From Haliotis rubra (lineage: Eukaryota), in contig NW_025765324.1 of NCBI RefSeq assembly GCF_003918875.1, forward strand, positions 88,041-152,040: a stretch of DNA of 64,000 nt, written 5' to 3'. Under the pieces are notes generated by a model, which saw nothing but the letters and a program-made list of their open reading frames with translations, searched no databases and was not told where the DNA came from. How positions within the stretch are numbered: position 1 is the stretch's first letter; every line of letters starts with the position of its first letter. The position numbers were made by a program, and so were the translations under genes. Below, in pieces: positions 23,979 through 24,220 of the stretch.

Positions 23979-24220
23979 GACCTTGGACCTTTGTCTTCAG
24001 GAGCTGACCAAATGTCAGTTCTTCATCGGTATGCTTGGCACCGATATGGCTGGGTTCCCGACAAGTATGAGGTTCCTGACACTGCTGAGTTCGACTGGGT
24101 CCGTGACTACCCGCCTGGAGCATCTGTAACAGAACTGGAGATGCATTCAGCAGCATTGTCCAAACCCAACGAAGTCCGCGAGAGATGCTTCTTCTACATC
24201 CGAGACAGCACGTTTGAAAG
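23979..24220 (+). CDS. TEP1: TEP1-like exon 17 (DUF4062 C-terminal part; contains apparent 1-nt frameshift)
   Basis: Acceptor attttcag|g, donor tttgaaag|gttggt. First part in frame A reads RTLDLCLQELTKCQFFIGMLG. The remainder is open only in frame B: (H)RYGWVPDKYEVPDTAEFDWVRDYPPGASVTELEMHSAALSKPNEVRERCFFYIRDSTFE. The frame switch lies at about 24040-24042. Confidence 0.65.

Follow-up and report, generated by a model that had tools for sequence, protein, structure and literature searches.

A missing base, most likely a consensus error of the assembly, in the NADase-domain exon of a mollusc-like TEP1 gene

The DUF4062 domain, since renamed NIR, is a TIR-like NADase; anti-phage systems of bacteria contain it, as does human TEP1 within the vault (two 2026 preprints). 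[quoted passage not shown] In human TEP1, Glu1008 is catalytic and R908, R954 and R976 are the active-site arginines; the protein is dispensable for telomerase function (bioRxiv 10.64898/2026.05.01.722283).

The stretch of DNA analyzed here (the window; 64,000 nucleotides, AT-rich, with about 40% GC) contains the gene for TEP1 (telomerase protein component 1 / vault protein) of a mollusc-like animal, complete and under evolutionary constraint. As given, its coding sequence (CDS) comprises 8000 nt; after three one-base repairs, it comprises 8001 nt and runs from ATG to a natural stop, encoding 2666 aa. The best full-length matches of this protein are mollusc TEP1 sequences (Potamilus, Pecten, Pinctada, Mizuhopecten, Batillaria and Patella), with 46–50% identity over 88–95% of the query, and the top 120 matches are all TEP1 or TROVE-domain proteins of 2200–2850 aa. 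The ∼54 coding exons are close to the 55 exons of human TEP1, a protein of 2627 aa. Among the window's ORFs of 130 aa or more, no second host gene was seen. The homology search returned nothing above 80% identity to the window, and none of five window ORFs subjected to exact look-up, two of them control exons, was present in a collection of 15 billion proteins.

Pfam assignments agree with this identification. The N-terminal TROVE domain (PF05731) was matched with E = 1.6e-82 and 278 bits against a cutoff of 23, and DUF4062 (PF13271) with 54 bits against a cutoff of 24.7 at residues 455–548 of the draft protein. A P-loop domain (AAA_22) with the motif GKPGSGKT occupies draft residues 712–831 and APAF1_C draft residues 1061–1187; for WD40 repeats, the draft protein scored 96 bits (cutoff 27). 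The propeller model specific to TEP1, PF25047, reached 46 bits, below its cutoff of 89, in a scan that covered the first 1347 aa of the draft, and the WD40 exons between 40 and 56 kb all match TEP1 references. In the repaired protein, DUF4062/NIR lies directly upstream of the P-loop NACHT-like ATPase. The positions of the gene, of the exons discussed below and of the dispersed repeats are collected in Table 1.

Table 1. Features of the TEP1 locus and dispersed repeats, in window coordinates
Feature	Position	Strand	Basis or remark
TEP1 orthologue, 54 coding exons	8493..56487	+	tblastn exon map, TEP1 references
Small 76-nt exon with second break, extra C in the CCC run 20824-20826	20766..20841	+	all references read L-RDR[IV]Q uninterrupted
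Upstream exon, first half of DUF4062/NIR domain (peptide ending TKLN), ends in phase 2 (after AG)	23356..23532	+
TEP1 exon with the reported lesion, second half of DUF4062/NIR NADase domain	23979..24220	+	orthologue comparison
Lesion site, orphan dinucleotide AC between GGC (Gly) and CGA (Arg)	24040..24041	+	alignment to 5 orthologues
CGA codon, human Arg976 equivalent, active-site arginine	24042..24044	+	11gz_A alignment; first codon out of frame as given
TAA stop met in incoming frame, 29 codons past the break	24127..24129	+
GAG codon, catalytic Glu1008 equivalent (SVTELEMH)	24138..24140	+	readable only in downstream frame
Downstream exon ((R)DVPKEFVTDF...LEVYD)	24496..24609	+	phase dictates frame at the lesioned exon's donor
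Exon with third break, one base missing within 37531-37550	37487..37574	+	tblastn frame switch near 37540, 60 TEP1 references
SINE copies	455-610, 3341-3498, 4050-4224, 14728-14902, 18498-18635, 20943-21117, 21974-22148, 32029-32186, 33275-33428, 46695-46869, 55023-55194, 59892-60066, 60956-61053		both orientations in family
Second dispersed repeat family	10905-11162, 12628-12885, 15197-15454, 36148-36245, 39326-39423, 43918-44175; inverted 4660-4815, 48343-48498

Two frames are needed to read the lesioned exon. The frame entered from position 23980 gives TLDLCLQELTKCQFFIGMLG and continues as the unrelated sequence TDMAGFPTSMRFLTLLSSTGSVTTRLEHL until it meets the stop at 24127–24129, and the frame from 23979 gives (H)RYGWVPDKYEVPDTAEFDWVRDYPPGASVTELEMH..., which is open through to the donor 24220/gt. 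Across the break, this second frame reads HRYGWVPDKYEVPDTAEFDWVRDYPPGASVTELEMH... and runs to the donor AAAG/gttggt at 24220. The 3′ end of the preceding exon is ...AAC AG/gt at 23532 and the first base of the lesioned exon is the G at 23979; at its other end, the exon must finish with ...GAA AG at 24220 if it is to be joined to the A GAT GTC that opens the next exon at 24496. Given that the introns on both sides are in phase 2, the length of this exon must be a multiple of 3, and the actual length is 242 nt. An earlier note made from the letters of the window had described a split between FFIGMLG and RYGWVP inside the DUF4062 exon, with an incoming frame that ends at a stop and a downstream frame that is the only one to meet the donor in the phase of the next exon. 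The frames, the tblastn frame switch, the orthologous DNA and the junction phases bear out this description, the one amendment being that the exon numbered 17 in that note is the 18th coding exon by the present count, to which an easily missed 76-nt exon (20766–20841) adds one.

The sequence at 24037–24045 as given is GGCACCGAT. Here, the bases AC at 24040–24041 are the remnant of a codon that is one base short. The lost codon could have been AAC, GAC, CAC, AGC or ACN (N, D, H, S or T), and N, D, H and S are each found at the broken-codon position among TEP1 homologues.

An orthologue search with the repaired exon peptide as the query yielded eight ORFs, each of a single exon, on metagenome and Logan contigs; the contigs (L001–L008) represent five distinct sequences. 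In all five, the homologous exon is exactly 243 nt long with homologous AG/GT boundaries, and the extra base relative to the window sits between TTGG(N) and CG(N)TATGG. In tblastx comparisons, each orthologue is read in a single frame and the window changes frame at 24040/24042. A frame switch at ∼24040 was also observed with 55 of 60 TEP1 references in tblastn, and exactly one residue (Q, E, N, D, G, S or H) separates G from RYG[WYF] in 115 of 120 TEP1 homologues. The base at 24040–24041 is thus absent relative to every orthologue recovered, and the comparison with orthologous exons that the earlier note had proposed upholds its claim of one missing nucleotide near 24040–24042.

The repaired peptide matches Pfam DUF4062 with E = 3.4e-8, and the four consecutive exons 17–20 align over 215 residues to the human TEP1 chain 11gz_A (E = 2.4e-60) and are ungapped at the break. 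These two matches show that the frame split is not a product of chance. In the alignment to 11gz_A, R908, R954 and R976 fall on arginines of the repaired window peptide and E1008 on a glutamate, all with a single offset of 893. The broken codon matches human Ser975 in position; it lies directly 5′ of the Arg976 codon and 33 codons before that for Glu1008. A restored exon would encode MLG-x-RYGWVP, in which x would be the Ser975 equivalent, followed by Arg976 and later by Glu1008. As given, the R976 and E1008 equivalents are out of frame, and the break at 24040–24041 alone would end the protein at 24127, without its active site, NACHT domain and WD40 propellers.

Two further single-base breaks are present in the same gene, which thus has three independent breaks of mixed sign (+1, −1 and −1). 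In the 76-nt exon, the frame of ...KGLPFQVLVEVL differs from that of RDRIQ, with CTCCCGAG in place of the expected CTCCGAG; the segment ...GLPFQVLVEVL stops at 20825 and RDRIQ begins at 20827. This break was missed by the tblastn screen at E ≤ 0.01 and by a colinearity screen of weak high-scoring segment pairs, and came from inspection of a reference segment that had no match; the repaired model was finally checked by global alignment. When the raw sequence is read from the ATG, the first stop is met at codon 816, just past the upstream break at 20826. In the exon at 37487–37574, GYYLRQADPEKTGTW and (HTRA)FSELPYHL fall in different frames. The spacer from TGG to TTC is 20 nt long (37531–37550, within GGGCACACACGCGCGCC) as against 21 in orthologues, and seven codons occupy it in L001 and in the six references that match the counting motif.

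Apart from these exactly three single-base indels, the gene has no other defect. Every junction is GT-AG, in the correct phase, and adjoins conserved peptide ends. Each stop symbol inspected inside the tblastn matches proved to be intron read-through, so that no genuine in-exon stop was found. Since the gene models required open frames between conserved anchors, the lack of stops is in part built in, which is not true of colinearity and conservation. In global alignment, the repaired protein is colinear with 20 reference TEP1s: no patch of at least 10 residues departs from the conserved columns, and no conserved segment is missing or scrambled except for a 17-residue gap in the variable N-terminus. 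Retention was assessed with the first repaired draft, which comprised 46 exons and two repairs. This draft keeps 97.0% of the columns on which 85% or more of the other TEP1s agree, the highest value among 21 sequences; the corresponding values are 95.5% between the breaks at 24040 and 37531–37550 and 99.1% downstream of 37531–37550. At 332 strong outgroup-consensus sites in the exons common to both, the window lineage has 17 private changes as against 34 in its closest relative, L001, and thus no acceleration of its rate. The encoded protein is conserved to the degree of any functional TEP1. These comparisons of sequence show that the gene has been under purifying selection for essentially all its history. 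The tests of constraint have low power against a very recent inactivation, since three neutral indels bring only about 30 substitutions in 8 kb. Among the hallmarks of a pseudogene, multiple frame lesions are present, and relaxed constraint, stops, and loss of splice sites or exons are absent.

The introns and flanks of the gene contain a variety of repeats. The intron after the exon at 24496–24609 is 6.6 kb long, as against 0.1–1.5 kb in related contigs, due to an inserted element of ∼5.4 kb (25576–30997). This element is bounded by 201-nt inverted repeats (25576–25776 and 30797–30997) whose arms differ by two substitutions only; its interior is GC-rich (about 53%), carries 135–144-nt tandem repeats (26937–27498) and has no long ORF. 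It looks like a recent insertion of a non-autonomous DNA transposon. Intronic minisatellites occupy 45467–46368 and 49003–50248, one with 48-nt units and the other with 23/64-nt units; both abut the acceptor regions of the next WD40 exons (at about 46353 and 50252) and are open in the exon frame, which yields long spurious ORFs. The reference proteins contain no sequence matching these minisatellite-derived ORF extensions. Other tandem repeats include a 24-nt minisatellite of about 20 copies (13482–13993), a (CCCTA)n microsatellite of about 27 units in a TEP1 intron (19633–19763) and, downstream of TEP1, a 29-nt array of about 13 copies (61777–62143).

Members of a tRNA-derived SINE family (Table 1) lie in both orientations, mostly in TEP1 introns, with the head GGGTAGCCTAGTGGTTAAAGCG...GGTTCGATTCCCC and the tail ...GCTGGAATATTGCTAAAAGCGGCGTAAAACTAAACTCACTCACTCA; part of one copy (3341–3411) scores as a tRNA in Rfam, and ARAGORN makes no call there. 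A 215-aa ORF with a Cys/His-rich tail on the minus strand (1058–1705) is, by its appearance, a candidate retrotransposon fragment. Two introns of the window are absent from L001, in which the exons 35203–35295 and 35756–35888 are fused (L001 5808–6038), as are 37190–37299 and 37487–37574 (L001 7665–7862). This difference in exon structure indicates intron gain or loss between the two lineages.

With regard to cause, the missing base at 24040–24041, the extra C at 20824–20826 and the missing base at 37531–37550 are most likely errors of the assembled consensus. We infer a sequencing or polishing error, at roughly three indels per 8 kb of coding sequence, a density that is typical of incompletely polished long-read assemblies. 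The presence of two further breaks and the otherwise intact and constrained state of the gene, neither of which the earlier note had recognized, move the balance toward an assembly artefact. The TEP1 models of Pecten maximus and Liolophura sinensis are flagged “LOW QUALITY PROTEIN” by NCBI, a label which means that the pipeline had to correct the assembly to obtain an open frame; two flagged mollusc models imply that this long gene commonly collects such errors.

The sequence context of the breaks was also considered. Each of the three touches a CpG, and for two of them the break falls in a run of C that immediately precedes CGA (CTCC/CGAG and GCAC/CGAT), a pattern recognized post hoc; in the CDS, only 17.5% of positions are no more than 2 nt from a CpG, and CCG runs of such a type account for 1.65%. 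The observed/expected ratio for CpG in the CDS is 0.47, and this depletion suggests germline methylation. Context-dependent miscalls at methylated CpG are an error mode of nanopore sequencing, and the CpG context of the breaks, although a post hoc observation, fits such miscalling. Counting against the artefact reading, the break at 24040–24041 is outside any long homopolymer, in an exon with no run of four or more, and an error at this site in a high-accuracy HiFi assembly would be unusual. The indel rate of the assembly was gauged by means of homopolymer lengths, tandem-repeat copies and the 201-nt inverted repeat, all of which were uninformative: the tandem repeats and the inverted-repeat pair are free of indels and give no sign of a grossly error-prone sequence, but are too short to inform.

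The main alternative to a consensus error is a real germline frameshift, in which TEP1 would have been recently inactivated, either as a segregating loss-of-function allele or as a young unitary pseudogene; we regard this as unlikely. After the first hit, the other two indels would have been neutral, Arg976, Glu1008, the NACHT domain and all WD40 propellers would be missing from the product, and nonsense-mediated decay would probably remove the mRNA. A single gene with three disabling lesions is what a pseudogene classically looks like, and the position of the break at 24040–24041 away from any long homopolymer favors a genuine lesion. Loss of TEP1 is tolerated in knock-out mice, so that a real null allele would be biologically tolerable, and molluscs are highly polymorphic and carry a heavy load of loss-of-function alleles. 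Against this, the indels are accompanied by no stop, no loss of a splice site or exon and no excess of amino-acid changes, and the window protein ranks first in conservation among the 21 TEP1s compared. For three independent frameshifts to arise and no other damage at all, the time available would have to be short. To our knowledge, spontaneous indels have no bias toward CpG or C-runs, and the context shared by all three breaks would be unexpected for such events. The stronger proposition, that all three indels are real and that the DNA comes from a mollusc or haplotype with a freshly inactivated TEP1, a natural knock-out of the newly discovered vault NADase that would end well before its active-site arginine and catalytic glutamate, is one we consider improbable.

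A further alternative, that the break is bypassed in expression by programmed −1 ribosomal frameshifting, transcriptional slippage or exon skipping, is very improbable. Re-reading of the C of GGC as the start of CAC would yield MLG-H-RYGWVP, but neither an in-frame slippery heptamer (X XXY YYZ) nor a homopolymer of four or more occurs in the exon at 23979–24220, and the 90 nt downstream of the break fold worse than shuffled sequence (z = +2.3). Programmed frameshifting and slippage are ruled out by the lack of a heptamer, of such a homopolymer and of a stable downstream structure. Because both ends of the lesioned exon are in phase 2, skipping it would preserve the frame at a cost of about 81 residues; such skipping is excluded as a rescue in that the catalytic core, with Arg976 and the catalytic Glu, would be deleted and NADase function could not be restored. 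A micro-intron or alternative splice site that bridges the two frames is excluded by the distance of only 2 nt between the flanking conserved residues. No orthologue has the same frameshift, and the two other breaks, of different sign, would each need a bypass of their own. Lastly, a long-standing pseudogene is ruled out by the results on conservation, relative rate and colinearity with the 20 references.

If the lesions were nevertheless genuine, nature would have provided, in this animal or population, an experiment on the need for the vault and the TEP1 NADase, and the loss in a single species of a gene dispensable in mice would still be a modest finding. Under the preferred reading of a consensus error, the break probably has no biological significance and its main value is for quality control: translation of the sequence as given truncates or splits TEP1 or suggests a pseudogene, and three repairs restore the 2666-aa model. 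Of use are the corrected model of TEP1 with its 54 exons, the three break sites and the finding that one of these adjoins the Arg976 equivalent of the NADase.

In comparison with human TEP1 and its annotated mollusc orthologues, the window gene as written differs in that its frame is disrupted three times by single-base indels. In this respect it resembles the frameshift-corrected models of NCBI, in which isolated one-base indels likewise occur in long, conserved coding sequences. Full-length mollusc TEP1s range from 2437 to 2847 aa, as compared with the 2666 aa of the window protein after repair. The order of domains in human and mollusc TEP1 (TROVE, DUF4062/NIR, P-loop NACHT-like, APAF1-type helical and WD40 repeats) is identical to that in the window. 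The DUF4062/NIR domain is common to the window protein, human TEP1 and the bacterial defence systems Swarozyc, Avs, Vulcan, Vesta and Evangelion. All four key residues of the human TEP1 NIR domain are kept in the repaired mollusc protein, a predicted NADase.
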